A stretch of DNA of 64,000 nucleotides from Acidobacteriota bacterium (GTDB lineage: Bacteria > Acidobacteriota > Thermoanaerobaculia > Multivoradales > JAGPDF01). The DNA is taken from NCBI GenBank assembly GCA_045862895.1, contig BTUO01000007.1, positions 67,615 through 131,614 of the forward strand, in the 5' to 3' direction. A program made the position numbers and the translations under genes. Below, one piece after another: positions 1-27,531 of the stretch. Every line of letters starts with the position of its first letter. Position 1 is the stretch's first letter. A model generated the notes under the pieces. That model searched no databases, had not been told where the DNA came from, and saw only the letters and a program-made list of their open reading frames with translations.

Positions 1-2280
1 GACGTCGGGCAGGATCTCGATGTCGCCCGGAGTGCCGTCGCTCGAACGCAGGACGCAACCTTCCCCCGGCTCCCAGGCCCAGTAGAGCAGCCGCGTGGCG
101 TCACCCGACCCGACGGTGGTGGCGTCGGAGACCCCGAGCTCGTCCTCGGTGGTCGGCCGCAGCAGCGTCCGTTCGTCGGCGACGAGATCGACGACCCAGA
201 ATCCGGCAAGATCCGACACCACGATCCGGCCGAGCTCCGGCCGGAACGGCCTCGGCCACCACAGGCCGTCCCATGCCGACGCGGGGCCCGGCGCGAGATC
301 GTGCGGGAGGGTCCCCGCCATCGAGCCGTCGCTGGTCCAGAGCTCGGTGCCGAGCGCGGTGGTGGTCGCCGCGAAGACGAGCATGCCGCCGACGTCGGTG
401 AGCCACTCCGGGAAGCTCCCTTCGACGCCGGGTTCGACGTCGCGCATCAGGCCGGTGCCGAGCGACGTGCCGTCGCTCGCCCAGAGCTCCTGACCCGCGA
501 TCGGTTCCCAGGTCGAGAAGTAGGCGAGATCGCCGGAGGCGCGGAGCCAGCCAACCGGCCCATCCGTCCAGCTCGCGAGCGGCACGAGCTCGACGCCGTC
601 GACGCGGGACAGCCGCCCGTAGATTCCGTCATAGTCGCCGACGAGAATCGAATCGTCCGGGAGCGCCTCGATCGCTCCGGTGATCGGTACCGGATCCCCG
701 TTCGCGAGCGTCAGCTCGACGGTCCCCGGCGCGCTGCCGTCCGACGCGAATCCGAAGAGCCCGTCCCAGGGCGGGGCGGTTACGTCCGGATACGCGGCGA
801 AGACGAGCCCGCCCGGCCGGGTCGTGAGGCTCGCCGGCTGCGAGGCGGAGCGCTCGACCGGAGCCATGAGTCGGAACGTGCCGGCCGCAGAGCCGTTCGT
901 CCGGTAGGTCTCGCAGCGCTCCTCCTCGTCGTGGGGCGGCACGTAGTACCAGCGGCAGATGTCGAACACCGTGAAGCCCGGGAGCACGGAGCTGCCCTGC
1001 AGGTACTCGCAGCCGGCGGCAGGATTCGCCACCAGCACGGTCCCCGCGGCGGTGCCGTCCGTCTTCCAGAGCGCCTGCTCCGCTTCCGCGCAGAAGTAGA
1101 TGCCGTCGTGCCCTTCGATCCCTCTCGTGGGCCAGGAACCCTCGCTTCCGGCGACGATGTCGCGCAGCATCACGGTACCGGCCGGCGTCCCGTCGGTGAC
1201 CCAGGGCTCCGTGCCGGTCGCGGGAGTCGACTCGGAGAAGACGATGCGATCCCCCACCTGTACGAACTGGCGAGGATCGATCCCGAAGTCGACGAGGTCT
1301 CGCAACTCGACGGCGCCACCGGGCGATCCGTCGCTGAACCAGAGCCGGAGGTCGGTTGGGCTGCTGCGCGACAGAACGATCAGCCCGCCGGGGACGTGGC
1401 CCACCACGTACGAATGCTGGATCGGGATCGGCAGTTGAATCGGGCTCGGCTGCGGCGAGGCGTCGTCGAGGATCCAGGCCGAGCTCGCGAAGCTCGGTGC
1501 CCCGGCATTGGCGGTGAAGCCGACGCGCTCGCCGCCTCCGACGAACCGGTTCGGCCACGAGCTTTCGGACCCCGGGACGAGATCCGCGACCCGGTAGGTG
1601 CCGCCGTCGGTGCCGTCGCTCACCCAGAGCTCGAGGCCGGTGGCGGCGTCGCCCGCGGCGAAGTAGAGCCGACCATCGAGCTCGGTCGAATCCGGCGGAA
1701 TGCCGATCGGTTCGACCATCCCGATCGGATACTGGAGCTTGCGCACCAGCGCGGTTCCCGGCGCGGTGCCGTCGCTGCGCCAGATCTCGAGGCTCGGCGC
1801 CTGCCGGACGACCGCCAGCAGCTGCTCTTCGCCGAGCGCCCCGAGGCTCCAGATCCGCGCGCCGTCGACGCCCGGGACGAACTCCCGAAGCAGCACGGTG
1901 CCGGCGGTCGTGCCGTCGGTCGCCCAGAGCTCGTTGCCAGATTCGATGCTCGAGGCGGCGAACAGCGCGCGGCCGCCGGCGACGTCGCCGAGGAATCGCG
2001 GCGCCGCGTCGTCCGAGCCGGGCGCGACGTTGCGCAGCAGACGGGTCCCCGCCGTCGTGCCGTCCGAGACCCACGGCTCGCTGCCGAATCCGGGCAGGTC
2101 GAAGCCGACCAGCGCCTTGCCCCCCGCCCGGCCGAACTCCCAGGAAGTGACGTACCAGGTGGCGTTCGGTTGCGTGCGCAGGTCGGCCACGCGGCGGGCG
2201 ACGCCGGAGGCCGGCGCGACAGAGGGAGCGAAGGCGAGCACGGCGAGCCAGGCGACGGTGCCACGAATCGATCGAGTCAT
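1..2280 (-). CDS. ELWxxDGT-repeat secreted protein, 3'-truncated by window edge
   Basis: Minus-strand ATG at 2280..2278 gives MTRSIRGTVAWLAVLAFAPS (signal peptide) followed by RVADLRT and repeated EPWVSDGTxAGT / ELWxSDG repeats. The frame stays open to position 1. It is absent from the ORF track only because it has no in-window stop. Confidence 0.7.
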   Translation of the reverse strand, partial: MTRSIRGTVAWLAVLAFAPSVAPASGVARRVADLRTQPNATWYVTSWEFGRAGGKALVGFDLPGFGSEPWVSDGTTAGTRLLRNVAPGSDDAAPRFLGDVAGGRALFAASSIESGNELWATDGTTAGTVLLREFVPGVDGARIWSLGALGEEQLLAVVRQAPSLEIWRSDGTAPGTALVRKLQYPIGMVEPIGIPPDSTELDGRLYFAAGDAATGLELWVSDGTDGGTYRVADLVPGSESSWPNRFVGGGERVGFTANAGAPSFASSAWILDDASPQPSPIQLPIPIQHSYVVGHVPGGLIVLSRSSPTDLRLWFSDGSPGGAVELRDLVDFGIDPRQFVQVGDRIVFSESTPATGTEPWVTDGTPAGTVMLRDIVAGSEGSWPTRGIEGHDGIYFCAEAEQALWKTDGTAAGTVLVANPAAGCEYLQGSSVLPGFTVFDICRWYYVPPHDEEERCETYRTNGSAAGTFRLMAPVERSASQPASLTTRPGGLVFAAYPDVTAPPWDGLFGFASDGSAPGTVELTLANGDPVPITGAIEALPDDSILVGDYDGIYGRLSRVDGVELVPLASWTDGPVGWLRASGDLAYFSTWEPIAGQELWASDGTSLGTGLMRDVEPGVEGSFPEWLTDVGGMLVFAATTTALGTELWTSDGSMAGTLPHDLAPGPASAWDGLWWPRPFRPELGRIVVSDLAGFWVVDLVADERTLLRPTTEDELGVSDATTVGSGDATRLLYWAWEPGEGCVLRSSDGTPGDIEILPDV

Positions 2281-2376
2281 GACGCTCTCCTTTCGACGAC
2301 CCCCCGGCCTCACGCCACGCATTCGGCGAGAGACCCGGGCCACGTATCCGACCGCGGACGTGCGCGTCGCGACGAT

Positions 2377-5136
2377 CTAGGGCGCGACGCTCCAGCGCGA
2401 GGTGTCGCCGGTCTGGAAGCCGTCATAGAAGACGAGGACCGGCATCGCCCAGAGCTCGGAACCGGTGCCGTCGTCGCCGGCGAAGTAGATGCGGTCGTGC
2501 CAGGCGACGAACGCTTCCGGGTCGTCGTAGGAATCGACCGACGGCCACGGCCCGACGGCGATCTCCGACAGCTGGAGAGTCCCTTCGATGGTGCCGTCCG
2601 TCGCCCAGATCTCGCGGCCGGTCGCGAGTCGCTCGGCCGTGAAGTAGACGAAGTCGCCGATCCGGGTGAAGCCTCGCGGGCTCGACGACGCCGCGCCCGG
2701 GACGAGGTCGACCAGGCGGACCGTGCCAGCGGTCGTGCCGTCGCTGCGCCAAGCCTCGCAGCCGGCGACCGGCTCGCACGCCGAGAAGAGCAGCAGATCC
2801 CCGAGCAACGCGCTCCAGTAGATCGAGGAGCCGTCCGGTCCCGGACGAACGTCACGCAGGAGGCGGGTCCCGATCGGCGTGCCGTCGCTCACCCAGAGCT
2901 CTTCGCCGAATCCGGGGTCCTTCGCCTCGCGGGCCGTGAACAGGATCCTCTCGGCGACTATGCCCAGCCATCGGGTGGTCCCGTAGCCGAAGCCCAGGTG
3001 GACGGTCGTCGGTGCGCTCGCGCTCGATTCGACGTACCAGAGGTCGATTCCCAGTTCCCCCGGACGCAGGAAATAGAAGCGTCCGGACTCGGCGTCGATC
3101 GGCCAGATCGCGACGGCGCGGGTCTCGGGATCGTCGCCGATTACCCCGAACGGGCCCGTCGTCGCCGGAGTCCCCTCGCTGCGCCAGACGCTCTCGATCC
3201 CCGCGCCGTCGAGCGCCGTGAACCAGACTTCGTCGCCGGCGTCGATCCACAGCGCCGGAGAGCTCGACGCCGTGCCGGGGACGAGGTCGAGGAAGAGCCC
3301 GGTCCCCGCCGGCGTGCCGTCGAGCGACCAGACCTCGGTGCCCTCCCCCACGGACCGCTCGGCGAACAGAGCGACCGGGCCGGCGGAGGGCGGGAGGTAT
3401 CCGATCGGACAGTCGTGATGAACGTCGCAGCGGACCGCGGCGTCGACGAGCGGGAGGGCTTCGTCCCCTTGGGTCGACCAGATGAGGGTCGATTCCCCGA
3501 GGTCGGTCGTGCCGATCACCGTACCCCCGTCGAGCACCGACACACCACCGATGACATTACCCACCCCGAAATCCCCGGCGAGGAGTCGGGAGCCCGGCTC
3601 CGTTCCGTCGGTCCGTCCGGGATGGCCCCCGTGATTCTCGATGGGCAGATGGGCGACGAAGTAGAGCAGGTCCCCGGCGTCGGTGAACGTGGTCGGGAGC
3701 GACGGCGAGACCGTCCGCGCCAGCGGCGCGACGAGCGCGGTGCCCGCGCCGGTTCCGTCGGTCTTCCAGAGGTCGCCTTCGATCGACATCAGCAGGACCC
3801 CGTCGCTCTCGCCGAGCCATCGGATCCACGAACCGCCCGGGCCCGGGGTGACGTCGGCGACGAGCTGAGGCGCGCTCCCGTCCTCCGGGAAGAGCCACGG
3901 CTCGAATCCGTTCGTACCGTCGTCGAGGATCAGGACGAGGCCCGCGTCGACACGTTCCGGCAGCACGAGCTCGTGTTGCAGCGAGATCCCTTCCGGTCCG
4001 GGACGGATCTCCGACCAGAGATGTGTCCCCGCGGGCGTACCGTCGCTGATCCACGGCTCGAGGCCATGCTCGGAATCGCCGAGGAAGAACAGCCAGGAAC
4101 CGTCAGCGAGAGGAAGCACAACCTGGGGATATCCCGACGGCCCCGGAATGTTCATGACTTCGGTCGTCCCGGCGGTCGTACCGTCGGTCCGCCAGATGCT
4201 CGTCCCCTTCCACTCGTGGATCACGAACAGCGCTCGGCCGCCCGCGACGGTCAGCCCCGGCCAGGGCTCGATGCCCTCGGTGGCAGGGCTCCAGACCTCC
4301 TCCGTTCCCGCGGCCGTACCGTCGGTCCTCCAGAGCGCGCGGTAACCGCTCGACCCCGGGGCGAGGAAGAGGACGGTGGAGGGCAAGGCGGCGAACCGGC
4401 CCGCGGGAACGTCCTCGCCGCCGCTCGGGAAATCCGTGAGCCGAAGCGTTCCGGCCGCGGTTCCATCCGACCTCCAGATCTGAGTCCCCGAAGCCGGCGT
4501 GCGCCCCATGAAATAGAGGAGACCGTCGTGAAGGAGGTGGCTCGAGCCGGGGATCCCGCTCGTCGGTCCCGGCCAGAGATCGATGACCGGATCGGTTCCT
4601 TCGAGCGTTCCGTCCGTGCGCCACAGCTCACGGCCGGTGTCGCTCCGGTACTGGGTGAAGAAGGTCCAGGGCTCGCCGACCTGGAAGAACGGCTCACCCT
4701 CCCACCATGACTCGCCGGGATCGGGGCTCGACAGGAGCCAGGTTCCGGCCTGCGTCCCGTCGGTGCGCCAGGTTCCGACTCCGGCGGCGGCCGCTCCCTC
4801 GAAGTAGGTGAGTCCGCCGATCCGGCCGTGGTACTCGCCGACATCGGCTCCCGGCGCTCCGAGATGGGCGACAGGTGTCGCGGTTCCGGCCGCGAGATCG
4901 ACGGCGAGCACTTCGCAACCCGCGCCGCGATCCGAGAAAGCGAGGTCCGGGAACGGGGCCTCCCAGGTGAGCCGCACGGGGCAGACCCCTCCGACCTTCT
5001 CGGTCCACACCCCCGGGTTGAGGTCCGCCACCCGCTCCGCGATCCCGGCGACCGCTTCGGCGGGGAGCTGTAGACCGAGGACCGCGACGAGTGCGGCGGC
5101 TCCGGTGGACTTCGTCGAAATCCGGCCAGGCTTCAT
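2377..5136 (-). CDS. ELWxxDGT-repeat secreted protein (beta-propeller-like repeats)
   Basis: Track ORF 2377..5151 begins at a TTG. The likely start is the ATG at 5136 (MKPGRISTKSTGAAALVAVLG signal peptide) with a GGAGG 8 nt upstream. It has more than 15 copies of ELWRTDGTxxGT-type repeats. The C-terminus reads YDGFQTGDTSRWSVAP. Confidence 0.8.
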   Translation of the reverse strand: MKPGRISTKSTGAAALVAVLGLQLPAEAVAGIAERVADLNPGVWTEKVGGVCPVRLTWEAPFPDLAFSDRGAGCEVLAVDLAAGTATPVAHLGAPGADVGEYHGRIGGLTYFEGAAAAGVGTWRTDGTQAGTWLLSSPDPGESWWEGEPFFQVGEPWTFFTQYRSDTGRELWRTDGTLEGTDPVIDLWPGPTSGIPGSSHLLHDGLLYFMGRTPASGTQIWRSDGTAAGTLRLTDFPSGGEDVPAGRFAALPSTVLFLAPGSSGYRALWRTDGTAAGTEEVWSPATEGIEPWPGLTVAGGRALFVIHEWKGTSIWRTDGTTAGTTEVMNIPGPSGYPQVVLPLADGSWLFFLGDSEHGLEPWISDGTPAGTHLWSEIRPGPEGISLQHELVLPERVDAGLVLILDDGTNGFEPWLFPEDGSAPQLVADVTPGPGGSWIRWLGESDGVLLMSIEGDLWKTDGTGAGTALVAPLARTVSPSLPTTFTDAGDLLYFVAHLPIENHGGHPGRTDGTEPGSRLLAGDFGVGNVIGGVSVLDGGTVIGTTDLGESTLIWSTQGDEALPLVDAAVRCDVHHDCPIGYLPPSAGPVALFAERSVGEGTEVWSLDGTPAGTGLFLDLVPGTASSSPALWIDAGDEVWFTALDGAGIESVWRSEGTPATTGPFGVIGDDPETRAVAIWPIDAESGRFYFLRPGELGIDLWYVESSASAPTTVHLGFGYGTTRWLGIVAERILFTAREAKDPGFGEELWVSDGTPIGTRLLRDVRPGPDGSSIYWSALLGDLLLFSACEPVAGCEAWRSDGTTAGTVRLVDLVPGAASSSPRGFTRIGDFVYFTAERLATGREIWATDGTIEGTLQLSEIAVGPWPSVDSYDDPEAFVAWHDRIYFAGDDGTGSELWAMPVLVFYDGFQTGDTSRWSVAP

Positions 5137-5168
5137 CGTGAGACCCTCCAAACCACCGCGCCGCGTGC

Positions 5169-7910
5169 TCAGGGAACGGCTTCACTCCACCGCGTCGTAT
5201 CACCGGTCTCGAACCCGTCCGCGAAGAGCGCGAGCGCATAGGCCCAGAGCTCGCGGCCGGTGCCGTCGTCGGCGGTGAAGTAGATCCACGGACCGGCGCG
5301 GGTGAAGCCGACCGGGTCGGACGACAGCGGGCCGGGCGCCGCGTCGCCGAGCGCGTGGCTGCCCTCCGGCGTGAAGTCGCTCACCCAGGGCTCGCAGCCG
5401 GTCGCCGAAGCGCAGCCCGCGAAGTAGAGCCGGCCGTCGATCGCGGTGAGCGCCCTCGGCGCGAGCGAATCCGGGCCCGGGACGAGATCGGCGAAGAGCC
5501 GCGTGCCCGAGACCGTGCCGTCGCTCGTCCAGAGCTCGCAGCCGTGCTCGAGGTCGCAGGCGCCGAACCAGAGCGCGCCCTTCGCGACCAGCAGGTCCGA
5601 GGCGCACAGCTCTCCCCAGCCGCTGCTGCGTCCGGGACGGGTGGTCGCGAGATCGACCGTACCCGGCGCCGTCCCGTCGGTTCGCCAGAGCGCGCAGCGG
5701 CCGTCCGGTTCGGCATCGATCAGAACGGCGTCCCCCTCGAAAGCGACGAAGGGGTAGTCGGGCCAGTTCTCCTGCGACTCGGGATCGAAGTCCCAGATCG
5801 CGCGGCTCGTGTCGGTCGCTGGGTCGACCTCGAAGAGATGCGTGTAGCCCGCCAACAGCAGGAGCGTCCCGTCCTCGCTCGAGAGCTCCTGGATCTGCCG
5901 CGGATCCGAACTCTCGCCGTCGAGGTCCAGGTCGTGCGGGGTCGTCCCGCCCGGCGTTCCGTCGCTCTCCCAGAGCTCGTCACCGAGCTCGCGTCCGCCG
6001 TCCGCGCCGAACCAGAGGCGGTCGAGGGCGACGGCGTGGTCGTGCGCTTGCGACGACGCCGGTCCCGGAGCGAGATCGCCGAGGAACTCGCTCCCCTCGG
6101 CGGTACCGTCGGTGCGCCAGGGCTCCCAGCCGGTCCCGGGCAGGTAGCCCGAGAAGAAGACGGAGCCGAGCGCCCCGAACAGGTCGCCCCAGATTCCCAC
6201 GCCCGGTTCGCCCTCGAGCACCGGCGCGAGCGCGCCGTCGACGTGGCGGTAGAGGTTGCCGATGTCGTCGACGGTGCCGGAGACCAGCACGCCCCCGCCG
6301 GGAAGCGTCGCCGCCGATCCTCGAGACTCGACCGTCTGGCCCGTCGTCGTTCGCAGCTCGAGCGTCGACGCTTCCGCACCGTCGGTCTCGAAGTAGTGGC
6401 CGTAGTAGCCCGTGCTGAAGATCAACCCTCGACCTCCGGGCGTCAGATTCCCCGGATGCGACGACGCTCTGCCGACGCGGGTCCAGACCGGAAACGTGCC
6501 GGCGGCGCTGCCGTCGGTGCGCCACAGGTAGCAGTAGTCGCAGTCGTGGTGGGGCTCGCAGGACGCGCTCCAGCACGAATTGAACAGCGTCGTCCCCGCG
6601 AGCGCGACGCCCGAAGAGAAGCCGCTGCACGGATAGATGCTCGCGACCACGACCGTCCCCTCGGGCGTGCCGTCGGTCCGGCGGAGCTGGTCGTCGAAGA
6701 AGCTGCAGAAGTAGGCGCCGTCGTGTCCCCGGACGAGCCGGGAGCGGAAGCCGTCGGCGGGACCGGAGGCGAGATCGGCCAGCAGCGACGTCCCTTCCTC
6801 CGTTCCGTCGCTCACCCACGGCTCGTATCCGAACTTCCCGGTCCGATAGGCGAACACTGCACGCGGCCCCACTTGGAGCGCGGACCCGGCGGTCTCCCAC
6901 TCGTAGTTGCCTTCGTAGCCCGGCAGCAGCCGTACGGTTCCCTCGGGCGTGCCGTCCGTCGACCAGAGGTGACGGCGGTTCGGCTCCTCGATCCGCTCGA
7001 AGAGCAGCCGCGATCCGACGCTCCCGAGGATCGTCGACGAGCCGACGATCGACGGGTCCGGAATCGCGTCCCCGAAGACCGGTCGGGTCCCTTCCGGCGT
7101 CCCGTCGCTCGTCCAGACCTCGGAGGTCTCGCCGTTGCGCGTCGCCAGGAAGTAGATCCGGCCCTCCGCCGCCGTGAACGCGCTCGGCCGTCCCGAGCGC
7201 GGGCCCGGGCGCAGGTCGCGCACGCGGAACGTCCCGGTCGGCGTGCCGTCGCTCACCCAGAGCTCGCCGCCCCGAGAGTCCTGTCCGCAGAACCAGACCC
7301 GGCCCAGCGCCGCGACGCCTCCGTAGCTGAAACAACCTCCGGGAAAGGCCGGGCTGCCGATCGGCTCGATGCGACGGGTCCCGGCCCGCGTGCCATCGCT
7401 CTTCCAGAGCTCGGTCACGCCCTCACGTTGGACCATCGCCCAGAGAACGGCTCCCGGCAGCGAGCCGACTCCCCAGACCGGCAGGGGCTCCCGGTCTTCG
7501 CCCTCGTCGAAGATCGCCAGAGTACCGGCCGCGGTTCCGTCGGTAGCCCAGATCGCATCCCGCCCCGACACCGGATGCCAGGCCACGAACACGGCATGGG
7601 TCGAGCTCGTGCCGAGCAGCCGGGCTTCGGGGTCGATCGACCCCGGCGCGATGTTCGCGAGAATCTCCGTCCCGGCCGGGGTGCCGTCCGAGATCCACGG
7701 CTCCGTTCCGGCGCCGGTGAGGGTGGCCAGGAGCAGCGCCTTCTCGCCCAGACGCGCGAGGTCGCGAGCGAACGGGTACTCCTCCGGCATGCCCATCCCG
7801 CCGGTCCCGGTGTTGAGATCCGCGACGCGGTGGATCTGGGCGAGGAGAGAGTTCGACGCCAGGGCGAGGACCAGCGGGAGCAGCGCGCGGACACGGGATC
7901 GAGCCGTCAT
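5169..7910 (-). CDS. ELWxxDGT-repeat secreted protein
   Basis: The track ORF extends to 8114 with an Arg-rich leader. The likely start is the ATG at 7910 (MTARSRVRALLPLVLALASNSLLAQIHRVADLNTG signal peptide) with GAGGTG upstream. It carries repeated EPWISDGTPAGT motifs. The C-terminus reads FADGFETGDTTRWSEAVP. Confidence 0.8.
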   Translation of the reverse strand: MTARSRVRALLPLVLALASNSLLAQIHRVADLNTGTGGMGMPEEYPFARDLARLGEKALLLATLTGAGTEPWISDGTPAGTEILANIAPGSIDPEARLLGTSSTHAVFVAWHPVSGRDAIWATDGTAAGTLAIFDEGEDREPLPVWGVGSLPGAVLWAMVQREGVTELWKSDGTRAGTRRIEPIGSPAFPGGCFSYGGVAALGRVWFCGQDSRGGELWVSDGTPTGTFRVRDLRPGPRSGRPSAFTAAEGRIYFLATRNGETSEVWTSDGTPEGTRPVFGDAIPDPSIVGSSTILGSVGSRLLFERIEEPNRRHLWSTDGTPEGTVRLLPGYEGNYEWETAGSALQVGPRAVFAYRTGKFGYEPWVSDGTEEGTSLLADLASGPADGFRSRLVRGHDGAYFCSFFDDQLRRTDGTPEGTVVVASIYPCSGFSSGVALAGTTLFNSCWSASCEPHHDCDYCYLWRTDGSAAGTFPVWTRVGRASSHPGNLTPGGRGLIFSTGYYGHYFETDGAEASTLELRTTTGQTVESRGSAATLPGGGVLVSGTVDDIGNLYRHVDGALAPVLEGEPGVGIWGDLFGALGSVFFSGYLPGTGWEPWRTDGTAEGSEFLGDLAPGPASSQAHDHAVALDRLWFGADGGRELGDELWESDGTPGGTTPHDLDLDGESSDPRQIQELSSEDGTLLLLAGYTHLFEVDPATDTSRAIWDFDPESQENWPDYPFVAFEGDAVLIDAEPDGRCALWRTDGTAPGTVDLATTRPGRSSGWGELCASDLLVAKGALWFGACDLEHGCELWTSDGTVSGTRLFADLVPGPDSLAPRALTAIDGRLYFAGCASATGCEPWVSDFTPEGSHALGDAAPGPLSSDPVGFTRAGPWIYFTADDGTGRELWAYALALFADGFETGDTTRWSEAVP

Positions 7911-8117
7911 GGGGCGCACCTCGTTCGGATGCGGAGGAGGATCGCCGACTGCCGACTCCAGACACCAGCGACGGTGGCTCGCCCCGGACCCTCCGGGTCG
8001 AGCTTCGCCGTCCGCTGCGCGAGGTCGGCGTCGAACGTCAGGGCGGGGATCCCCGTGTGGATGATCCCGGAGTCGCGATCGTGGCGGTCGATCATCGGAC
8101 GCTCCTCGTGCCATTGC

Positions 8118-10898
8118 CTACGGCCCAACGCTCCAGCGAGTCATATCGCCAGTCTGGAAACCGTCGTAGAAGAGCTCTCCAGGCATCACCCAGGGCTCAC
8201 TCCCGGCACCACCGTCCGCGGCGAAGTAGACCTTGTCGCCGACGAGCGCGAACTCCGTGGGGCTCGAGCCCGCATCGCCGGGGGACAAGTCACCCAGTCG
8301 ATGGGTACCCGCCACCGAACCATCGGTCACCCAAGGCTCGCAGCCGTGGCTCGAGGTGCAGGCCGAGAAGTAGAGTCGATCACCGAGGACCGTCAGCGAG
8401 GAGGGCGAGGAGGACAGCGCGCCCGCCTGGATGTCGATCAACATCTCGGTCCCCTCGGGCGTGCCATCGGTTCGCCACAGCTCGCACCCCGCCGCCGGGG
8501 AACAGGCCGCGAAGTGCCACGAACCGCCGGGGAGCCGCGCCATCTCCTGGGGACAGCCGGCGGAGCCCATTGAACCGCTCCCCGTCTCGCGCACTCGGAC
8601 GGTACCGGCCGGCGATCCATCGGTGGCCCAGAGAGCGCAGACACCGTTCGCCTCGAGGTCGAAGAAGAGCGCGCGGTCTCCGAGGATCGCGAAGGGGAAC
8701 CTCTCGCGGTACGGATCGACTTCGAACGAGACGGTGTGCAGAAGGATCGCCGCCTGGGTGCCGGAGTCCCATCGCAGCAACTGGCGGTTCCTGCGGAACA
8801 GCAGTGAGCCGGGAATCTGGGGAAAGGACGTCAGGTCCGATGGACCCTCGTAGAGCGGCTCGGACCCCGGGACGAGGTCGTGGACGATCGTCGACGCCGG
8901 CGTTCCTCCGCTTTGCCAGAGCTCGACACCGTGTTCGTCGGTCGCACCGACGAACCAGGTCGAGTCGGCGACGCCGGTGAACTCCCCGCGCCCGTACAGT
9001 GTGGTGCTCGTCTCCAGATTCACGAGCATCGAGCAGCCGGGGCCGATGCCGTCGGCGTTCCAGATCTGGATATCCCAGTCGTCCAGCACTCGGAAGTAGT
9101 GGCGTTCCGCGATCCGTACGAGCTCGTCCCCGAGGATTCCGCGGTGGATGGTCGGGTAGAAGCTGCAGATCACCTCGAAGGAGCCGGGCGTCGTGCGCCA
9201 GAGGTGTCGGTAGGAGTCGACACTCGAGGCTGCGAACAGGTATTCGCCGTCGTCGAGCGTCGAGAAGTCCGAGACCCACTGAGCCGGTGATCCGTTCCGG
9301 AGCACCGGCATCGTACCTGGAGAGGACCCGTCGGTCCGATACAGGCGCCGATCCTCGAGCGCGACGAAGAGCGCTTCGGAATCCCTGGGCGTGAAGCGCG
9401 CGGGGGATGCGTCGTCGAAGATCGTCATCGGCCACAGAATCTCGGTTCCAGCTTCGGTGGCATCGGTCGTGTACGTCGCGCAGTACGTCGGACAGGGACC
9501 GCAGTCGTCCCCACAGATCCCGACGACGGCGTGGTCTCCCGCCGCGGCGAACGCGGTCCACCAGGTCTCCTGGCTCGAGTTGAGAACCGGGCCGAGGCGG
9601 GTCCCACCGGCCGTGCCGTTGGTCCTTCCGACGACGGCCCCCGAGTCGTAGGCGTCGAAGAAGAGCCAGCTGTCGTTGGCGGCGACCGTCTCGAACCAGG
9701 TCGAGCCCCCCGAGGCACTCAGGTCCTTGACGAGCAGCGTACCGCCGGCGGTGCCGTCCGAGCGCCAGGGCTCCTGCCCGTGGATTCCGTCGTCCGCCGC
9801 GAAAATGACGCGGCCGTCGATGACCGCCCCGGGTCGCGGATCCGAAGAGGATGCTCCCACCCAGATGTCGCGCAGCAGCGCCGTCCCGGACGAGGTGCCG
9901 TCGGAGCGCCAGACTTCCCGCCCGTGCTCGGGATCCGTCGCCGCGAAGAGCATCCGTCCGCCCGCGACACCGAGCGGCACCGGAGTCGAGCTCGCGGTGC
10001 CGGGAGCGACGTTTCTAAGTAGCTTCGTACCGCCGGCGGTGCCATCGCTGATCCAGAGCTCGCTGCCCCAGGCCGGCTTGGTCGCGCGAAAGTAGACTCC
10101 GCCCGGACCCGCCGAGAACCCTTCCGGCAGGCTGCCTCCAGGACCGATGTCGATGTCGAGCAGGAGCGTGGTCCCGGCCTCGGTCCCGTCCGTCCTCCAC
10201 AGTTCGACGCCATCGGGACCGTCGCTCGCGGCGAACAGGAGGAATCCACCGACCGCGGCAGCGTACGGCCGGAGCGCCGCCGCTTCGGGTTCGGGAATCC
10301 CGTTCTGCGAGCCAGGTCGAATGTCGCGGACGCGCCGAGTCCCCGAGGGGGTCCCGTCCGATCGCCAGAGCTCTCGCCCGGAGACCCCGTCCCGCGCGGA
10401 GAAGTAGAAGTCGCCCTCGAGGGCTCCGAGACCGATCACGTCCGATCCGAGGGGCCCGGGGCGGAGGTCACCGAGAAGCCAGGTCCCGGTCGAAGTGCCG
10501 TCGGTCCGCACCAGCTCGCGCCCTCGACCCGGAATCTCGGCTGTGAAATAGAGCAGGCCACCCGCCTTGCCGACCGCGATCGGATCGGTGCCGCCGCCCC
10601 CGGGCAGGAGGTCCCGAAGCCTCCGCGTGCCCGCCGTCGTTCCGTCGGATAGCCAGGGCTCTGCGCCGCCACACGCCCCGGTCAGGCTCAAGAAGGCCTC
10701 GTCGTTCCAGGTAAAGGCGCCGTCCGCGTCGCAGAACGTCTCCTGCTGTCCCGTCTCGAGCTCGGCGACCTGGCGGGCGACGCCTTCGCCCGCTGACAAG
10801 GGGACCGCGACGAAGACGAGGCAAGCCGCGAACAGTCTCCCGAGTCTCGGCGCGGAGTGAGCCCCCCACGCCTGATTCTGCTCTCGCTGTCGCTCCAT
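8118..10898 (-). CDS. ELWxxDGT-repeat secreted protein
   Basis: The real start is the internal ATG at 10898 (MERQREQNQAWGAHSAPRLGRLFAACLVFVAVPLSAGEG) with a GGGAGG 8 nt upstream. The 1917-aa track ORF 8118..13871 is a same-frame read-through into the antisense of the next gene. It carries ELVRTDGTSTGT / ELWRSDGTPSGT repeats. The C-terminus reads FYDGFQTGDMTRWSVGP. Confidence 0.75.
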   Translation of the reverse strand: MERQREQNQAWGAHSAPRLGRLFAACLVFVAVPLSAGEGVARQVAELETGQQETFCDADGAFTWNDEAFLSLTGACGGAEPWLSDGTTAGTRRLRDLLPGGGGTDPIAVGKAGGLLYFTAEIPGRGRELVRTDGTSTGTWLLGDLRPGPLGSDVIGLGALEGDFYFSARDGVSGRELWRSDGTPSGTRRVRDIRPGSQNGIPEPEAAALRPYAAAVGGFLLFAASDGPDGVELWRTDGTEAGTTLLLDIDIGPGGSLPEGFSAGPGGVYFRATKPAWGSELWISDGTAGGTKLLRNVAPGTASSTPVPLGVAGGRMLFAATDPEHGREVWRSDGTSSGTALLRDIWVGASSSDPRPGAVIDGRVIFAADDGIHGQEPWRSDGTAGGTLLVKDLSASGGSTWFETVAANDSWLFFDAYDSGAVVGRTNGTAGGTRLGPVLNSSQETWWTAFAAAGDHAVVGICGDDCGPCPTYCATYTTDATEAGTEILWPMTIFDDASPARFTPRDSEALFVALEDRRLYRTDGSSPGTMPVLRNGSPAQWVSDFSTLDDGEYLFAASSVDSYRHLWRTTPGSFEVICSFYPTIHRGILGDELVRIAERHYFRVLDDWDIQIWNADGIGPGCSMLVNLETSTTLYGRGEFTGVADSTWFVGATDEHGVELWQSGGTPASTIVHDLVPGSEPLYEGPSDLTSFPQIPGSLLFRRNRQLLRWDSGTQAAILLHTVSFEVDPYRERFPFAILGDRALFFDLEANGVCALWATDGSPAGTVRVRETGSGSMGSAGCPQEMARLPGGSWHFAACSPAAGCELWRTDGTPEGTEMLIDIQAGALSSSPSSLTVLGDRLYFSACTSSHGCEPWVTDGSVAGTHRLGDLSPGDAGSSPTEFALVGDKVYFAADGGAGSEPWVMPGELFYDGFQTGDMTRWSVGP

Positions 10899-10927
10899 CG
10901 CGATCGCCTCCCGAGAATCCTCCACTG

Positions 10928-13753
10928 TCAAGGCGCTCCGCTCCACCGCGAGGTATCCCCACTCTCGAACCCGTCGCGGAAAACACCGTGGACGATCGCC
11001 CAGAGCTCGGTGCCGGTGCCGTCGTCGGCGGCGAAGAAGATGCGGTCGCCGGCTTCGACGAAGACGGGCTCGTCCGGATCCCAGGGCCAGCCGTAGTAGT
11101 CGAGGAGCCACTCGAGCCAGGGGATCGGCAACGAAGAGAGCGGGCCCGGCGCGACCTCCTCGAGCTGGAAGGTTCCGGCGGTGGTGCCGTTGGTGACGAA
11201 GCCTTCGCAGCCGAATGCGATCCGGCAGGCCGCGAAGTAGACCCGACTGCCGATCTTCGACAGCCCGGACGGGCGTGAGGAGCCCGGTCCCGGCTCGAGG
11301 TCGAGGAGGCGCCCCGTCCCCGCCTCGGTGCCGTCGCTGGCCCAGAGCTCGCAGCCGCCCACGGGGTCGCAGGCCCGGAAGATCACCTTGCCGCCGACGA
11401 CCACGCCGGCGCCGATCGACGAGTCGGGCTCGCCGGGCCAGATGTCGCGCAATAGATGGGTACCCGCTGAAGTTCCGTCGCTCACCCAGAGCTCGGCGCC
11501 GGTCGGAGGTTCGGCCGTGCTCACCCCGGCGAACAGGACGCGCCCGCTCACCACCCCCAGCGGCTCCGGGTCGCGGGAGTAGACGCCGGTCGCGATGATC
11601 TCGGGAGGTTGACCGGACCCCGCCGAGTAGCGCAGGACCGAAGTCCCGGTCTCGTAGCGACCGGCGAAGTAGCTCCCGACCGCGGGGTCGATCGGCCAGA
11701 GGCTCGCGCGATGGAAGTCGGTCGTCGTCCCCGGCAGGGAATCCACCACCTCCGTCGTCTCCGGAGTGCCGCGGCTGCGCCAGACGCTCTCGACGTCGTC
11801 GACGTCGACCGCGGTGAACCAGATCTCCGCTCCCACCTGGCTGAGCTGCGAGGGCGAGGCCGAATCCGGACCGGGGATCAGATCGAGCAGAGGCGACGTC
11901 CCGCCCGGCGTGCCGTCGGTGCGCCAGAGCTCGCTGCCGTAGTCCGCTGTCCAGTCCACGAAGAGGGCGAAACCGCCCGCGACCGGCGGCGCGTGACCGA
12001 GGCCGGTCGAACAGCGCGCCCCACAGGAGTACGAAAGCTTGGCGACCGGCGGTGGAAGCTCGTCGCCCGACCAGAGCTCGCTGTAGCCGTAACGACCGTC
12101 GCCGTCGTAGTCGGTGTTGGCGACGAACCCACCGTCGCCGAGATCCGCGAAGTGCGTCCAGCCATACAGCCAGTCGATGGGGGGCGAACCGAGCCAACTC
12201 GTCCCGACCTCGCTGCCGTCGCTCCGGAAGGGGTGACGGACCCAGGGCGCAGCCAGCGCGTCGAAGTAGACGCGCTCGCCGACCCGCGCCAGGCGGAGCG
12301 GATCCGACGGCGAGACCGTGCGGCCCAGGTCGGCGATGGGGACGGTCCCCGCCGCCGTGCCGTCGGTCGACCAGAGCCGCCCTTCGTATTCGAAGAGCTC
12401 GTATCCGTCCTGCTCTCCGAGGAGTCGGAGATTCCGGATGTCCTCCCGACCCGGCTCGAGGTCCTTCACCAAGCCGGTGCCGGCTGCCGTCCCGTCGGTG
12501 ATCCAGAGCTCGCGCCCGTGAACGCCGTCGTCGAGGGGAAGCAGCACCTGGCCGCCCAGCGTCGCGGTGGGCCAGCCGGCGGCCGCGGAGTCTCCGGGGC
12601 CCGGTCGCACGTCGGCGAGCAGGTGCGTCCCCTCGGGAGTTCCGTCCGTCGTCCACGGCTCCACGCCGTGCGCCGCGTCGCGGGCGAAGAAGATCCAGCC
12701 GTTCGCGACCGGCAGGGGGCGACCGAAGGATGGAGCCGCGGCCTGCGGCAGGGTGGTCACCTGGAGCGTCCCGTCCACGGTGCCGTCGGTGACCCAGAGC
12801 TGGATCGCCCCGCCCTTGTCGATCTCGAGCAGCGCGCGGTCGCCCCGGACCGCGAGCGGCCGGACGTGCGCCGAATCGCCGACCGGTACGGACAGGAGCC
12901 GCTCGGCACCTTCCGCGGGACCGTCGATCCGCCAGAGCTCGACCGGGCCGCCGTAGGTCCAGGCGGTCAGGAGCATCGCCGACGGCAGCGCCGCGAAATC
13001 GGCCACTCGGCTCGCGAAGGACTCCGGCTCGAAGTCCCAAACGGCGACGGTGCCGGCCGCGGTTCCGTCCGTACGCCAGACTTCCCGGCCGTGAACCCCG
13101 TCGTCGGCGAGGAAGTAGAAGTCCGGACCCCGGAAGCCGTTCTCGCGGAACTCGTTGCTCCAGCCGCCGCCGCTGCCCGCCGCGCCCGGATTCAGGTCCG
13201 CGAGCAGCGCGGTGCCCTCCGGCGTCCCGTCGGTTCGCCAGGGCTCCCATCCGGTCTCCGGCAGGTACCGATGGAAGTAGCTCCAGGGATCCCCCGCCGC
13301 GAATCCGCGGAATCCGTAGGTCGGGGCCGGACCCGGTGTCGCGTCGAGCAGGAGGTAGGTGCCTTCCGGCGTGCCGTCCGTACGCCAGAGCTCGCGGCCG
13401 GTCGCGGCGACGATCCCCTCGAAGAAGGTCTGCCCGCCGGCCTGGCCGTAGGCCTCCTCGATCCGGGCGCCGGCCTCGCCGAGGTGGGCGACCGGCGTCA
13501 TCGCGCCGGCGGCGGGCTCGACTTCGAAGATCCGGCAGCCATCGCCCGCCGGATCGACGAAGACGAAGCCGGGGAGCCGGTCGAGGTGCGGCGTGTAGCC
13601 GTAGCCGCGGCAGGGGCCGCCCCGAACCTCCTGCCAGCTGTCGCGGTTGAGATCCGCGACGCGATACGGGGTCTGAGCCGGGAGCGCGGCGGCGACCAGC
13701 CCGGCGAGCAGGCCGATCGGGATCCTTCGTACGACGAGAGTGGTCGGCGTCAT
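10928..13753 (-). CDS. ELWxxDGT-repeat secreted protein
   Basis: The likely start is the ATG at 13753 (MTPTTLVVRRIPIGLLAGLVAAALPAQTPYRVADLNRD) with a GGAGG 6 nt upstream. It carries ELWRTDGTPEGT repeats. The C-terminus reads FRDGFESGDTSRWSGAP. Confidence 0.8.
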   Translation of the reverse strand: MTPTTLVVRRIPIGLLAGLVAAALPAQTPYRVADLNRDSWQEVRGGPCRGYGYTPHLDRLPGFVFVDPAGDGCRIFEVEPAAGAMTPVAHLGEAGARIEEAYGQAGGQTFFEGIVAATGRELWRTDGTPEGTYLLLDATPGPAPTYGFRGFAAGDPWSYFHRYLPETGWEPWRTDGTPEGTALLADLNPGAAGSGGGWSNEFRENGFRGPDFYFLADDGVHGREVWRTDGTAAGTVAVWDFEPESFASRVADFAALPSAMLLTAWTYGGPVELWRIDGPAEGAERLLSVPVGDSAHVRPLAVRGDRALLEIDKGGAIQLWVTDGTVDGTLQVTTLPQAAAPSFGRPLPVANGWIFFARDAAHGVEPWTTDGTPEGTHLLADVRPGPGDSAAAGWPTATLGGQVLLPLDDGVHGRELWITDGTAAGTGLVKDLEPGREDIRNLRLLGEQDGYELFEYEGRLWSTDGTAAGTVPIADLGRTVSPSDPLRLARVGERVYFDALAAPWVRHPFRSDGSEVGTSWLGSPPIDWLYGWTHFADLGDGGFVANTDYDGDGRYGYSELWSGDELPPPVAKLSYSCGARCSTGLGHAPPVAGGFALFVDWTADYGSELWRTDGTPGGTSPLLDLIPGPDSASPSQLSQVGAEIWFTAVDVDDVESVWRSRGTPETTEVVDSLPGTTTDFHRASLWPIDPAVGSYFAGRYETGTSVLRYSAGSGQPPEIIATGVYSRDPEPLGVVSGRVLFAGVSTAEPPTGAELWVSDGTSAGTHLLRDIWPGEPDSSIGAGVVVGGKVIFRACDPVGGCELWASDGTEAGTGRLLDLEPGPGSSRPSGLSKIGSRVYFAACRIAFGCEGFVTNGTTAGTFQLEEVAPGPLSSLPIPWLEWLLDYYGWPWDPDEPVFVEAGDRIFFAADDGTGTELWAIVHGVFRDGFESGDTSRWSGAP

Positions 13754-13918
13754 CGAACGCCTCCTCGGGGTCGACCGGCGGCCAGTCGTGAGGGGTCGTG
13801 GTTCCGGCGCGATCGGATGTCCACCGCTCGAGCGCGGGGGGTCGTTCGCTGCCCGGATTCGACAGCAGCATGTTAGCACCGCCGCGAGCCGCCGGCTGTG
13901 ACCCCGGTCAGGTCCGGC

Positions 13919-14872
13919 TCAGCGCGCGAAACTCTCGTCGATCCAGCGGGTTAGGCCGGGAGCGAGGTCGACCAGCTCGGCCTCGGTGACGCGCAGGCCC
14001 GAGCGGGCGGCTTCCGCCAGCCAGCGGCGCAGTCCGACGTTGCCCTTCTTCACCCAGAGGACATCGGCGCCGCGCAGGAACTGGCCCTGGTACCAGAGCT
14101 CCTCCTCCACCGGCAGGTCGCGGCGGTAGCCGTCGAGGCGGCGCGCCGCGACGCCCCCCTGCGCCGCGGCGATGCGGTCGAAGAGGTCGGCGATCGCCGG
14201 CATCTGGCCGGGGTCGGTGCGCTCCCAGGCCAGACGCGCCAGCGCGTGCGCGAGCAGACCGTCGATCCAGGGCGCGTCGCCGCGGAGCCCCGAGGCGCGC
14301 GCCCAGGCCGCGGCGAGCTCGGCCTGGAGGACGGCGTCGGCGACCACCAGGCTCGCGGCCTCCTCGGCGCTGCCGATCAGCGGGTCGCCCGGCAGCGCCG
14401 GCAGGAAACCGCCGGTCAGCTTCCGGGCGAGCTCGACGGTCGACGGATCGCCGGTCGACGCCACCGCGAGCTCGAGGTCGCCGACGCTCGCCGGCAGCCC
14501 CCAGGGGCGATCGAGACCGGCCGCCTCCCAGTGCTCGCGATCGAGCACGCGCAGGCGCGGGATCAACGTCCCGCGCCCCTTCGGCACCATCGCCATCAAC
14601 GCCTCGACCACGCCGTCGACCCGTTGCTGGAGAGCCGCCGCGCGGTCGAGCGAGCCCGGCACGTAACGGACCTCGCAGAAACGGCCCTGCAGCAGCAGCA
14701 GGTCGGGGTTGCGCTCGAGCGGATCGGCGTCGAGCTCGACCGGCGCCGGCAGCGGCGTGCCCGGCGGCGGCAGCGCCCGGCGGCCGCCGGTCGAACAGGC
14801 CGGCAGCGAAGCGAGCAGGGACAGCGCGAGGACCGGGGCGGCCCAGGAGCGAATGCGGGCGTCGATCGACAT
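13919..14872 (-). CDS. hypothetical lipoprotein
   Basis: The N-terminus MSIDARIRSWAAPVLALSLLASLPACSTGG has a signal peptide and an L-P-A-C lipobox. Amino-acid composition is normal, unlike the overlapping Arg-rich ORF 13908..14906. Confidence 0.6.
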   Translation of the reverse strand: MSIDARIRSWAAPVLALSLLASLPACSTGGRRALPPPGTPLPAPVELDADPLERNPDLLLLQGRFCEVRYVPGSLDRAAALQQRVDGVVEALMAMVPKGRGTLIPRLRVLDREHWEAAGLDRPWGLPASVGDLELAVASTGDPSTVELARKLTGGFLPALPGDPLIGSAEEAASLVVADAVLQAELAAAWARASGLRGDAPWIDGLLAHALARLAWERTDPGQMPAIADLFDRIAAAQGGVAARRLDGYRRDLPVEEELWYQGQFLRGADVLWVKKGNVGLRRWLAEAARSGLRVTEAELVDLAPGLTRWIDESFAR

Positions 14873-14877
14873 GGGGC

Positions 14878-14901
14878 GAGTCTATGCGCGGCGATAGACT
14901 C
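14878..14901. promoter_or_regulatory. 8-bp perfect inverted repeat GAGTCTAT-N8-ATAGACTC in the 36-bp divergent intergenic region
   Basis: Read directly from the sequence as gagtctatgcgcggcgatagactc. It lies between the lipoprotein start (14872, minus) and the quinone oxidoreductase start (14909, plus). Confidence 0.4.
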
Positions 14902-14908
14902 GGCAATC

Positions 14909-15991
14909 GTGAAGGCCTTCCGCATCGCGGCCCACGGCGGGCCGGAAGCCCTCGAGTGGACGGAGCTGCCGGAGCCGGCGGCCGGGCCCGGCGAGGTGCG
15001 GGTCCGCGTGCGCGCCTGCGGCGTCAACCACCTCGACCTCTGGGTGCGCAACGGCGTGCCCGGTCACCGATTTCCGCTGCCGCTCGTCCCGGGCAGCGAG
15101 GTCGCGGGCACGGTCGACGCGCTCGGAGCCGGCGTCGACGACCTCGCCATCGGCGAGCCGGTCCTGCTCGGCCCCGGCGTCGCCTGCGGCCACTGCCTGC
15201 GCTGCCGCTCGGGGCAGGACCACCTCTGCGCCGACTACGGCCTGCTCGGCGAGCACCGCGACGGCGGCTACGCCGAGCTCGTCTCGGTGCCCCGGCGCAA
15301 CGTCTTTCCGATCCCGCGCGGGCTCTCGTTCGCCGAGGCGGCGGCGGTGCCGCTGGTCTTCCTCACCGCCTGGCACATGCTGGCCGACCGCGCCGAGCTC
15401 GCCGCCCACGAGGACGTGCTGCTCCACGCCGCCGGCTCGGGCGTGACCACCGCCGGCATCCAGATCGCCAGGCTCCTGGGCGCGGGCAGGATCCTGGTCA
15501 CCTCGAGCTCGGACGAGAAGCTGGCGCGCGCGCGCGCCCTGGGCGCCACCCACGGGCTGCGCAGCGACGCCGGCGACTTCGCGCGCGAGGCGCGCGCGGC
15601 GACCGGCGGGCGCGGCGTCGACGTCGTCTTCGACCACGTCGGCGGCGAGCTGCTCGAGCGCAGTTTCAAGTGCCTGGCGCGCGGCGGGCGAATCGTGACC
15701 TGCGGCGCCACCGCCGGCGCCGAGGCGCGCGTGCCGCTGCGCGCCGTCTTCTTCAAGAACCTGTCGCTGCTGGGCTCGACCATGGGCTCGCTCGGCGAGC
15801 TCGAGCGGCTGCTGCCCTGGTTCGAGACCGGGGCGCTCGCGCCGGTGGTCGCCGACGTCCTGCCGCTCGAGCGCGCCGGCGCGGCGCAGGAGCGGCTCGC
15901 CGGGCGCGGCGTCTTCGGCAAGCTGGTGCTCGACGCGGGGCGCGCGCACGAAGTGCCGCGCCCGAAGGAGGTCTCCGATGGAAGCCCGTGA
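14909..15991 (+). CDS. NADPH:quinone oxidoreductase / zinc-binding alcohol dehydrogenase family (MDR superfamily)
   Basis: A GTG start gives MKAFRIAAHGGPEALEWTELPEP, the classic quinone-oxidoreductase N-terminus. It also has GVNHLDLWVRNG, a Zn-ADH-like CGHCLRCRSGQDHLC, and the Rossmann motif HAAGSGVTTAGIQIARLLGA. The upstream part of track ORF 14246..15991 is antisense of the lipoprotein gene. Confidence 0.85.
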   Translation: MKAFRIAAHGGPEALEWTELPEPAAGPGEVRVRVRACGVNHLDLWVRNGVPGHRFPLPLVPGSEVAGTVDALGAGVDDLAIGEPVLLGPGVACGHCLRCRSGQDHLCADYGLLGEHRDGGYAELVSVPRRNVFPIPRGLSFAEAAAVPLVFLTAWHMLADRAELAAHEDVLLHAAGSGVTTAGIQIARLLGAGRILVTSSSDEKLARARALGATHGLRSDAGDFAREARAATGGRGVDVVFDHVGGELLERSFKCLARGGRIVTCGATAGAEARVPLRAVFFKNLSLLGSTMGSLGELERLLPWFETGALAPVVADVLPLERAGAAQERLAGRGVFGKLVLDAGRAHEVPRPKEVSDGSP

Positions 15992-16637
15992 GTTCGTCGC
16001 CGGCCTGGTGGCCGAGATGCAGCAGCTCTTCGCCAAGCTGGGGGATCAGGGGGCGCTCGAGGCCGAGTCCGACGGCAACGTCGAGGTCGTCACCCTGCTC
16101 GAGCTGGCGTTGAAGAGCGAGATCGAGGCCGCCGAGCTCGCCGGCTTCTTCCTGCCGACGACCGCCGAGATCGACGCCAAGATGGTCTTCGCCCGCCAGT
16201 GCGGCGACGAGATGAAGCACTACCACCTGATCTCGGAGCGTCTGCGTCAGCTCGGTCGCGACGTCTCGCAGATCGACCCGCTCGCCGACGGTTACAGTCC
16301 GCTCTACCACTACGTGAAGGGACTGCGCACCACGGTCGAGCGCGTCGCCGCGGGACCGTTCGCGCGCGAAGCGATCGCCGAGGTGCGCAACGAGCAGTTC
16401 ATCGCGCTGTGCGAGCGGCAGGGGGACGCCGAGACCGCGCGGCTCTACCGCGAGACCATCCAGCCGGAGGAGGTCCTTCACCACCGGCTCGGCCGCGAGC
16501 TGCTCGAGAAGTACTGCACCACCCCCGAGCTCCAGGAGGCGGCGGCCACCGCCGCGCGCGCCACCCTGGCGATCGCCGACGAGCTGTCGGCGCTCGCCGA
16601 GAAGACCACCGGGATGCACCCGATCCCGGCTTCCTGA
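15978..16637 (+). CDS. ferritin-like diiron-carboxylate domain protein
   Basis: A GGAGG lies 6 nt upstream of the ATG. Two ExxH motifs are present (DEMKHYH and EEVLHH) and the protein is helical and acidic. The start overlaps the oxidoreductase 3' end by 14 nt. Confidence 0.65.
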   Translation: MEAREFVAGLVAEMQQLFAKLGDQGALEAESDGNVEVVTLLELALKSEIEAAELAGFFLPTTAEIDAKMVFARQCGDEMKHYHLISERLRQLGRDVSQIDPLADGYSPLYHYVKGLRTTVERVAAGPFAREAIAEVRNEQFIALCERQGDAETARLYRETIQPEEVLHHRLGRELLEKYCTTPELQEAAATAARATLAIADELSALAEKTTGMHPIPAS

Positions 16638-16659
16638 TCCTTTCGCGGAGGGCAAGACC

Positions 16660-17676: not shown

Positions 17677-17690
17677 GGCGCGGCGACGGG

Positions 17691-23548: not shown

Positions 23549-23683
23549 GGCGGGGGGAGGGGCGCCCAGGGTCCGGAAACAACGGTCGCGAGGCGAGACC
23601 CCGGTGGGCCCCCCTCGTCTCCCTCCGGACGCCTGCGGTGCAGCGCCCTTCTGCCCGTCCGGACTCCCGGAGATTCCCTTCCT

Positions 23684-23707: not shown

Positions 23708-23745
23708 GAGGGTTGGTAGCGTCCGCGGGCGGGTGGAGGGTGGCC

Positions 23746-27510: not shown

Positions 27511-27531
27511 GGCATACCTCCCTCGGAAATT

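Follow-up and report, generated by a model that had tools for sequence, protein, structure and literature searches.

The window analysed here is a stretch of 64 kb on contig BTUO01000007.1 of the Acidobacteriota metagenome-assembled genome AMXMBFR36, which stems from an anammox-reactor community. Its positions 1-13753 carry five minus-strand genes for ELWxxDGT-repeat proteins, named A to E, of which B to E are complete (913-941 aa) and A is cut at the window edge (Table 1). This tandem, same-strand set of four complete genes and a truncated one had been described when the DNA was read without database searches (the sequence-only reading), and all five genes were recovered. B to E end in almost the same short stretch of residues, and this C-terminal tail, which was also found on many unrelated exported proteins, is the element under study.

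Independent gene calls on L119, a near-identical Logan contig, gave the same gene lengths. The frame of D is open upstream of position 10898, and the start at 10898 matches the independent call. L119 runs past the window edge, where positions 12857-18623 hold the remainder of the array. There, the complete gene A encodes 916 aa and ends in FYDGFQTGDLSRWSAAP, directly followed by the stop codon. Behind it lies a sixth ELWxxDGT paralog of 963 aa, which ends in a degenerate version of the tail, FRDGFEVADTSRWS, and then an acidic extension of 44 aa. The tandem array has five genes in the window and six on the full contig.

All five paralogs matched TIGR04534 (ELWxxDGT_rpt) with 314-499 bits, far above the curated cut-off of 65 bits, in 8-12 stretches each (E 8e-96 to 1e-153), and multiple tandem repeats of ~47 aa were found in every one. 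The sequence-only reading had pointed to this family, and the search bore it out. No Pfam domain exceeded its gathering score in A to E, and the single sub-threshold match, to DUF5980, was in E alone. A repeat hidden Markov model (HMM) made from the paralogs found 13-14 significant units per protein, and 15-17 in total. AlphaFold2 (AF2) predicted all-beta multi-propellers for both modelled proteins, with a mean predicted local distance difference test (pLDDT) score of 85.5 and a predicted template modelling (pTM) score of 0.83 for B, and 83.6 and 0.84 for E. The model of B had ~69 strands, equal to roughly 17 four-stranded blades. The earlier count of 15 or more repeats per protein holds when degenerate units are included, but not for the significant units alone. 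The solved folds nearest to the models were tandem propellers, namely the YWTD propellers of LRP6 and megalin and the GH74 enzymes. Judged by these profile matches, the paralogs are ordinary TIGR04534 members, and their bodies belong fully to the family. To our knowledge, no function has been attached to TIGR04534 to date. The paralog subfamily (~915-950 aa) is set apart from the rest by its tail and by its six-gene tandem arrays.

A classic Sec signal peptide opens every paralog. It is followed by a short box, which reads RVADLN in B, C and E, RVADLR in A and QVAELE in D, and whose V and D are at least 90% conserved over 46 homologues. In the models the box is a confident beta-strand (residues 34-37 in B and 30-33 in E, pLDDT ~87), and it matched weakly the second half of the repeat HMM (xLVxDIxPG). 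The signal peptide and (R/Q)VA(D/E)L box claimed for all five genes are indeed present, but the box is nothing special, being the second half of a truncated first repeat. On the models, the mature N-terminus is probably a truncated repeat, and its strand would complete the final blade by velcro closure, the classic way in which propellers are closed.

The tail at the other end follows the pattern F-x-DGF(E/Q)xGDxxRWS-xx(x)P-stop in B to E. A search of the six-frame translation of the 64 kb with G[DE]x[ST]xW[ST] gave four matches only, all of them the ends of B to E. The near-identical ending reported for the complete genes is thus present in all four, and the L119 copy shows it for gene A too. 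When the C-termini were aligned, the tails were 59-88% identical between pairs of paralogs, whereas the bodies were only 30-43% identical. The codons of the five tails differ at synonymous positions, which argues for selection at the protein level. Gene conversion or a DNA-level element as the source of the conservation was ruled out by the same differences.

In both AF2 models, the last strand was the final ELW segment (ELWAMP/ELWAIV), at residues 893-899 in B and 915-921 in E. The 20 residues after it were coil with pLDDT 40-57, and DSSP assigned no strand past residue 899 (B) or 921 (E). In these models, the tail lies outside the predicted fold. The sequence-only reading had itself raised the possibility that the tail is simply the last repeat blade, and DG(F)xxG(D)T does loosely resemble the DGTxxGT of the repeat. 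However, the repeat HMM did not extend into the tail, and this, together with the predicted coil, rules out a last blade or degenerate DGTxxGT repeat. A closure strand of the propeller fits no better, as the models have no terminal strand and the N-terminal RVADLN segment, a confident strand, is the more plausible closure.

Table 1 Features of the window, with positions as numbered from its first nucleotide.
Feature	Position	Strand	Size or sequence	Details
Paralog A	1..2280	-	760 aa visible	3' end cut at window edge; TIGR04534 E 8e-96
RVADLN-equivalent box of A	2176-2193	-		reads RVADLR
Paralog B	2377..5136	-	919 aa	TIGR04534 E 6e-111; NCBI GMU66676.1, annotated hypothetical protein
Tail of B	2380..2439	-	VLVFYDGFQTGDTSRWSVAP	stop codon 2377-2379; residues 900-919 coil, pLDDT 54-57 (AF2)
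N-terminus of B	5017..5136	-		signal peptide ~residues 1-28; RVADLN box residues 35-40
Paralog C	5169..7910	-	913 aa	TIGR04534 E 9e-116
Tail of C	5172..5231	-	ALFADGFETGDTTRWSEAVP	stop codon directly after
RVADLN-equivalent box of C	7812-7829	-		reads RVADLN
Paralog D	8118..10898	-	926 aa	TIGR04534 E 1e-153
Tail of D	8121..8177	-	ELFYDGFQTGDMTRWSVGP	stop codon directly after
RVADLN-equivalent box of D	10755-10772	-		reads QVAELE
Paralog E	10928..13753	-	941 aa	TIGR04534 E 2e-133
Tail of E	10931..10987	-	GVFRDGFESGDTSRWSGAP	stop codon directly after; residues 922-941 coil, pLDDT 40-53 (AF2)
RVADLN-equivalent box of E	13646-13663	-		reads RVADLN
Predicted lipoprotein	13919..14872	-	317 aa	lipobox LPAC; heads the same-strand array; position kept in L119, L120 and L121
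Ser/Thr kinase	20255-23950	-		AAA_16 and tetratricopeptide repeats (TPR); 6.5 kb from the array
Row between kinase and giant RHS gene	25087-31571	-		TonB-dependent receptor, PF12281 nucleotidyltransferase, tryptophan-halogenase-like flavoprotein, small RHS-repeat protein
Giant RHS-repeat protein	32053-43002	-	~3,650 aa	transglutaminase-like core, DUF6531; polymorphic-toxin-like; tail absent
Giant adhesin-like protein	42792-60578	-	~5,900 aa	CARDB, FlgD_ig, Big_13, Calx-beta, fn3, prenyltransferase/SQHop-cyclase-like toroid, pAdhesive_15; tail absent

Beyond the array, the tail takes the general form hFADGFE(S/T)GDTS(A/R)WSxxVP-stop, with an acidic core (D-G-F-E-x-G-D) and aromatic flanks. A tail-only profile search, run with a duplicated 23-aa tail, found 413 proteins, which were returned as short fragments. 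Among the best 120 of these, 117 had hFADGFE(S/T)GDTS(A/R)WS and 75 ended exactly five residues past the Trp, with VP as the consensus ending; the final residue was Pro in 67 of the 75 aligned tails. Full-length carriers were drawn from two further searches. An exhaustive profile search among 1.84 billion cluster representatives (50% identity) retrieved 7,832 at E ≤ 1e-3. A DNA scan of one genome per GTDB species, using a degenerate pattern for DGFE(S/T)GDT(S/T)xW(S/T), found at least 118 loci.

Several genomes among the matches listed had many loci. Nearly all of these matches came from Thermoanaerobaculia, Holophagae, Ca. Multivoradales or unclassified Acidobacteriota, and a minority from a few Polyangiaceae, Gemmatimonadota and Gammaproteobacteria. 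The tag is centred on Thermoanaerobaculia/Holophagae-type Acidobacteriota. The loci listed held 124 open reading frames (ORFs) with the tail, of 200-1,900 aa and unrelated in their upstream sequences; 82 stop exactly four residues past the W-S/T, and ~110 (~89%) do so within seven. A less strict search of these loci and of the window yielded another 23 variants, mostly at the extreme C-terminus. The stretch before the motif (positions -20 to -24) was variable, and no conserved cleavage site was seen.

Scans of whole proteins and tail peptides against Pfam and NCBIfam at E ≤ 10 gave nothing besides TIGR04534 and one chance match. A PDB sequence search with the tail returned chance matches only, such as FADGFISGD in methane monooxygenase (E 0.38). 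Nothing relevant on ELWxxDGT proteins, the tail motif or sorting signals of Thermoanaerobaculia/Acidobacteria was found in the searchable literature. We conclude that the tail is a genuine C-terminal module of wide occurrence, apparently undescribed as far as we checked.

The proteins carrying the tail are diverse. We found 65 Pfam families in 81 carriers, each family in at most seven. They include FG-GAP, BNR/sialidase-like, InhA-like MAM, subtilase S8, LVIVD and Laminin_G_3, as well as sortilin-type propellers, beta-helix, GSDH, NHL, peptidases M14 and M28, GH9 and MauG. By their domain content, the carriers are typical extracytoplasmic proteins. A crude heuristic predicted signal peptides for 56 of 73 tail ORFs, compared to 129 of 308 other ORFs at the same loci (odds ratio 4.6, p = 1e-7). 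With 7,832 clusters and 65 Pfam families, the tail is not private to the ELWxxDGT paralogs, a possibility that the sequence-only reading had left standing. It shows the general marks of a C-terminal sorting or anchoring tag: unrelated exported cargo, a fixed terminal position and restriction to a lineage.

Homologues of the repeat proteins give this position a context. A close subfamily of ELWxxDGT proteins, of ~910-950 aa, keeps the tail. More distant ones end in Cys-rich MYXO-CTERM-like anchors, the C-terminal domain (CTD) of the type IX secretion system (T9SS; PF18962), SLH domains, dockerins or a PEP-CTERM-like anchor. The tail thus sits where sorting and anchoring modules sit in its homologues. 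Another ELWxxDGT set, with several members named Acidobacteriota or Thermoanaerobaculia, ends at the extreme C-terminus in (L/V)DVxGYF(Q/E)-stop, a second conserved C-terminal module (P0156, P0166, P0167, P0173, P0180, P0188, P0204, P0214, P0217, P0231 and P0237).

The known sorting systems were compared with the tail. PEP-CTERM, GlyGly-CTERM, MYXO-CTERM and LPXTG signals are tripartite, with a motif, a transmembrane helix and a basic cluster, and they are cut by a membrane-embedded enzyme. Like the signals of exosortase, rhombosortase, MYXO-CTERM and sortase systems, the tail is a short C-terminal motif on unrelated Sec-exported families, restricted to a lineage, present in several copies per genome and found at the same position in ELWxxDGT homologues. 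In contrast to them, it has no hydrophobic segment or basic residues and ends 4-5 residues past the Trp. The four tails of the window (...RWSVAP*, ...RWSEAVP*, ...RWSVGP* and ...RWSGAP*) lack the PEP motif, hydrophobic stretch and basic cluster of PEP-CTERM, and the Gly-Gly motif, transmembrane helix and basic residues of GlyGly-CTERM. The earlier idea of a shared sorting or processing tag stands insofar as the tail is a separate conserved C-terminal module on many unrelated secreted families; its placement with the PEP-CTERM or GlyGly-CTERM kind does not.

Another known system is the T9SS CTD, a folded beta-sandwich of 70-100 aa in Bacteroidota and relatives that is read in the periplasm. It too is a C-terminal signal without membrane anchor on diverse Sec cargo, and it occurs on other ELWxxDGT proteins. 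The tail differs in its size (~20 aa), its predicted lack of structure and its occurrence in Acidobacteriota, and it had no match to PF18962 or TIGR04183. Small docking modules, such as the dockerins of dockerin/cohesin pairs, resemble the tail as small, portable, mostly C-terminal modules with an acidic D/E/G-rich core, and the tail would likewise bind its partner non-covalently. Donor-strand complementation, known from chaperone-usher systems and type V pili and akin to SpyTag-like split strands, also relies on one strand or hairpin taken out of a known fold. However, a dockerin has ~70 aa and duplicated EF-hand-like loops and is thus far longer than the tail, no cohesin-like or strand-deficient 'catcher' protein came up, and complementation would here be hypothetical.

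In the 64-kb window and among the recurring neighbours of the 118 related loci, we found no gene resembling a sortase, exosortase or rhombosortase. In an all-against-all clustering of 706 ORFs from these loci, only pairs of an extracytoplasmic function (ECF) sigma factor and a Ser/Thr kinase-TPR gene recurred. Kinase-TPR genes were present in 12 of the 118 loci (L009, L024, L026, L058 and L083 are among the loci where they recur), and in 5 of those 12 an ECF sigma factor adjoins the kinase. Both families are very large in Acidobacteria, and the pairs were set aside as sorting enzymes, being probably regulators or chance neighbours.

Copies of the motif in other positions shed light on its origin. 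The top-scoring proteins of the exhaustive search have 2-6 copies, spaced ~190-290 aa apart, with ~170-195 aa after the last one. Here the motif, in the form FxDGFExGxLxxW, aligns to position 1 of PF14099 (Polysacc_lyase) and to positions 2-3 of CBM_4_9 (PF02018); Laminin_G_3 (PF13385) was also matched in multi-copy proteins. As these are the starts of jelly-roll profiles, the motif is here the opening strand of a concanavalin A (ConA)-like domain of ~190 aa. The terminal tag appears to derive from this first strand of a ConA-like (CBM4_9/PF14099-type) jelly-roll domain. In P0256, the motif at the start of the ConA-like domain (residues 229-249) weakly matched, below the threshold, positions 1-24 of NF033675 (NTTRR-F1 domain), which hints at an opening strand common to several jelly-roll families.

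The window tails resemble the N-terminal strand of these jelly rolls, but the remaining ~170 aa are absent from them, and terminal copies in general have GD-T in place of GD-L/F and end in xxVP-stop. Only the first ~20 residues precede the stop codon, and the paralogs hold no complete ConA-like domain of ~130-210 aa. Read-through into a downstream ConA-like remainder was ruled out, as the next paralog starts 30-210 nt past each tail. GD-T was found in 63 of 70 terminal copies, whereas internal copies mostly have GD-L or GD-F, which argues that the terminal tail is a distinct, specialised subclass. In the aligned motifs, this subclass has a polar residue in place of the putatively core-facing hydrophobic one of the domain version.

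An origin in the first strand of a ConA-like domain would also fit a tail without any function in trans, be it the vestigial remnant (stub) of a ConA-like domain that was lost, or a structural cap such as the last blade or velcro strand discussed above. Proteins with [motif+domain]n, a Pro-rich linker and then a terminal motif do exist (P0241, P0245). However, a stub would decay, and no part of the paralogs is better conserved than the tail. Its precise end recurs in thousands of clusters and on at least 65 unrelated folds. As a blade it is supported by neither the repeat HMM nor AF2, and the closure is more plausibly made by the RVADLN strand. Stub and cap are largely refuted here, and we consider this explanation very improbable.

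We favour the reading that the tail is a portable post-Sec tag on Sec-exported Acidobacteriota proteins, read in trans by a shared partner for sorting or docking, and give it a probability of roughly 45%. Recognition in trans, the formation of a hairpin and the sorting or docking outcome are what we infer. Sec export and cleavage of the signal peptide would leave the RVADLN strand as the mature N-terminus. The propeller fold would end at the last ELW strand, with a flexible module of ~20 residues protruding beyond it. In the periplasm, a shared partner would recognise the tag in trans and bind it by strand augmentation, as an amphipathic beta-hairpin with faces F/F and W/V. All bound cargo would then share one fate, namely passage across the outer membrane or docking onto it or the cell surface. 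A more specific version makes the tail the cargo signal of an undescribed post-Sec pathway of Thermoanaerobaculia/Holophagae-type Acidobacteriota. The signal, ~20 residues long and without a membrane anchor, would be read by beta-strand complementation, for instance by supplying the first strand that a ConA-like receptor or a component of the outer membrane lacks. The cargo, from thousands of clusters and dozens of families, would be exported or attached to the surface. We regard this version as doubtful.

Several observations weigh against a tag read in trans. The motif is not strictly terminal, as in many proteins it opens the ~190-aa ConA-like domain. In rare cases the full tag, including xxVP, follows the signal peptide directly or lies between two domains (P0290, P0252, P0249, L035 and L045). 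Several orthologues have 20-25 extra residues past the tail, and the sixth paralog has 44, which argues against a recognition that needs a free carboxyl end. Taken together, the ConA-opening, internal and extended copies suggest a portable module and not a signal confined to the C-terminus. Neighbour clustering of the 118 loci gave no recognition partner, and a low-confidence AF2 coil is no proof of a free tail in the actual protein.

The internal and N-terminal copies, the extended orthologues and the missing partner favour to some degree a different reading, in which the tail is an autonomous ligand-binding or adhesive mini-module. It could be, for example, a Ca2+-stabilised acidic/aromatic hairpin binding exopolysaccharide, lipopolysaccharide or matrix. 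Proteins would then be retained at the surface without a protein receptor or sorting machinery, as with small carbohydrate-binding modules, SLH or LysM anchors. Kinship to the first strand of carbohydrate-binding/ConA-like domains and the acidic core between aromatics are consistent with this, and a full form kept in internal and N-terminal copies is typical of binding modules, not of sorting signals. No partner gene was seen among the neighbours at the 118 loci either. Against it, 20 residues are very small for an autonomous binding fold, AF2 gave the tail no structure, and a binding module does not need the strong preference for the extreme C-terminus. We think such a mini-module rather unlikely.

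The regular end of the tail allows a further interpretation, as a processing or quality-control tag that is removed during maturation by a periplasmic PDZ-type protease (Prc/CtpA-like) or another peptidase. Enzymes and propellers could in this way be held inactive or unfolded until export. The fixed end at W+5 and the conserved final Pro suggest recognition of the end itself. The tail is also flexible and lies beyond the predicted fold, and many of the cargos are proteases (S8, M14, M28, InhA-like), which commonly carry propeptides. However, the variable positions upstream of the motif offer no conserved cleavage site, the extended orthologues and internal copies do not fit, and no linked peptidase gene was found in the window or among the neighbours of the 118 loci. 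A processing tag seems improbable to us.

Acidobacteriota abound in soils, sediments and bioreactors. They are difficult to grow in culture, and little is known about how their large secretomes reach the surface. The tag of ~20 residues, present on thousands of secreted enzymes, propellers and adhesin-like proteins, offers a handle to define their exported proteome. It is also an entry point for partial phylogenetic profiling toward the machinery that would read it, and may be a compact, membrane-independent targeting or docking peptide. The ELWxxDGT family gains a testable context as well, that of cell-surface or extracellular propeller arrays.

The array itself belongs to a larger conserved layout, which was repeated in two metagenome contigs of the Joint Genome Institute (JGI), L120 and L121. 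One strand carries a 3HCDH gene, a DUF455/ferritin-like gene and a zinc alcohol dehydrogenase (ADH) gene. On the opposite strand, ELWxxDGT paralogs follow one another behind a gene for a 317-aa lipoprotein; L120 has six of them, and L121 has at least two up to its contig end. The recurrence of this layout in the JGI contigs argues that the array is old and conserved. The predicted lipoprotein had no match in Pfam or NCBIfam.

The other genes of the window encode the zinc ADH, the ferritin-like protein, 3HCDH, a Ser/Thr kinase, a TonB-dependent receptor, a nucleotidyltransferase, a halogenase-like flavoprotein and two giant proteins, one with RHS repeats and one adhesin-like (Table 1). That kinase-TPR genes recur near tail-bearing genes may be due to chance, or it may reflect regulation. 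On the far side of the 3HCDH/ferritin-like/ADH block, L120 (1-3220) and L121 (1-3357) each have two radical S-adenosylmethionine (SAM) genes and a 121-aa ORF, and L121 additionally has a Transglut_core3 (PF13471) gene. By its gene content, this radical-SAM region may be a cluster for ribosomally synthesised and post-translationally modified peptides (RiPP-type).

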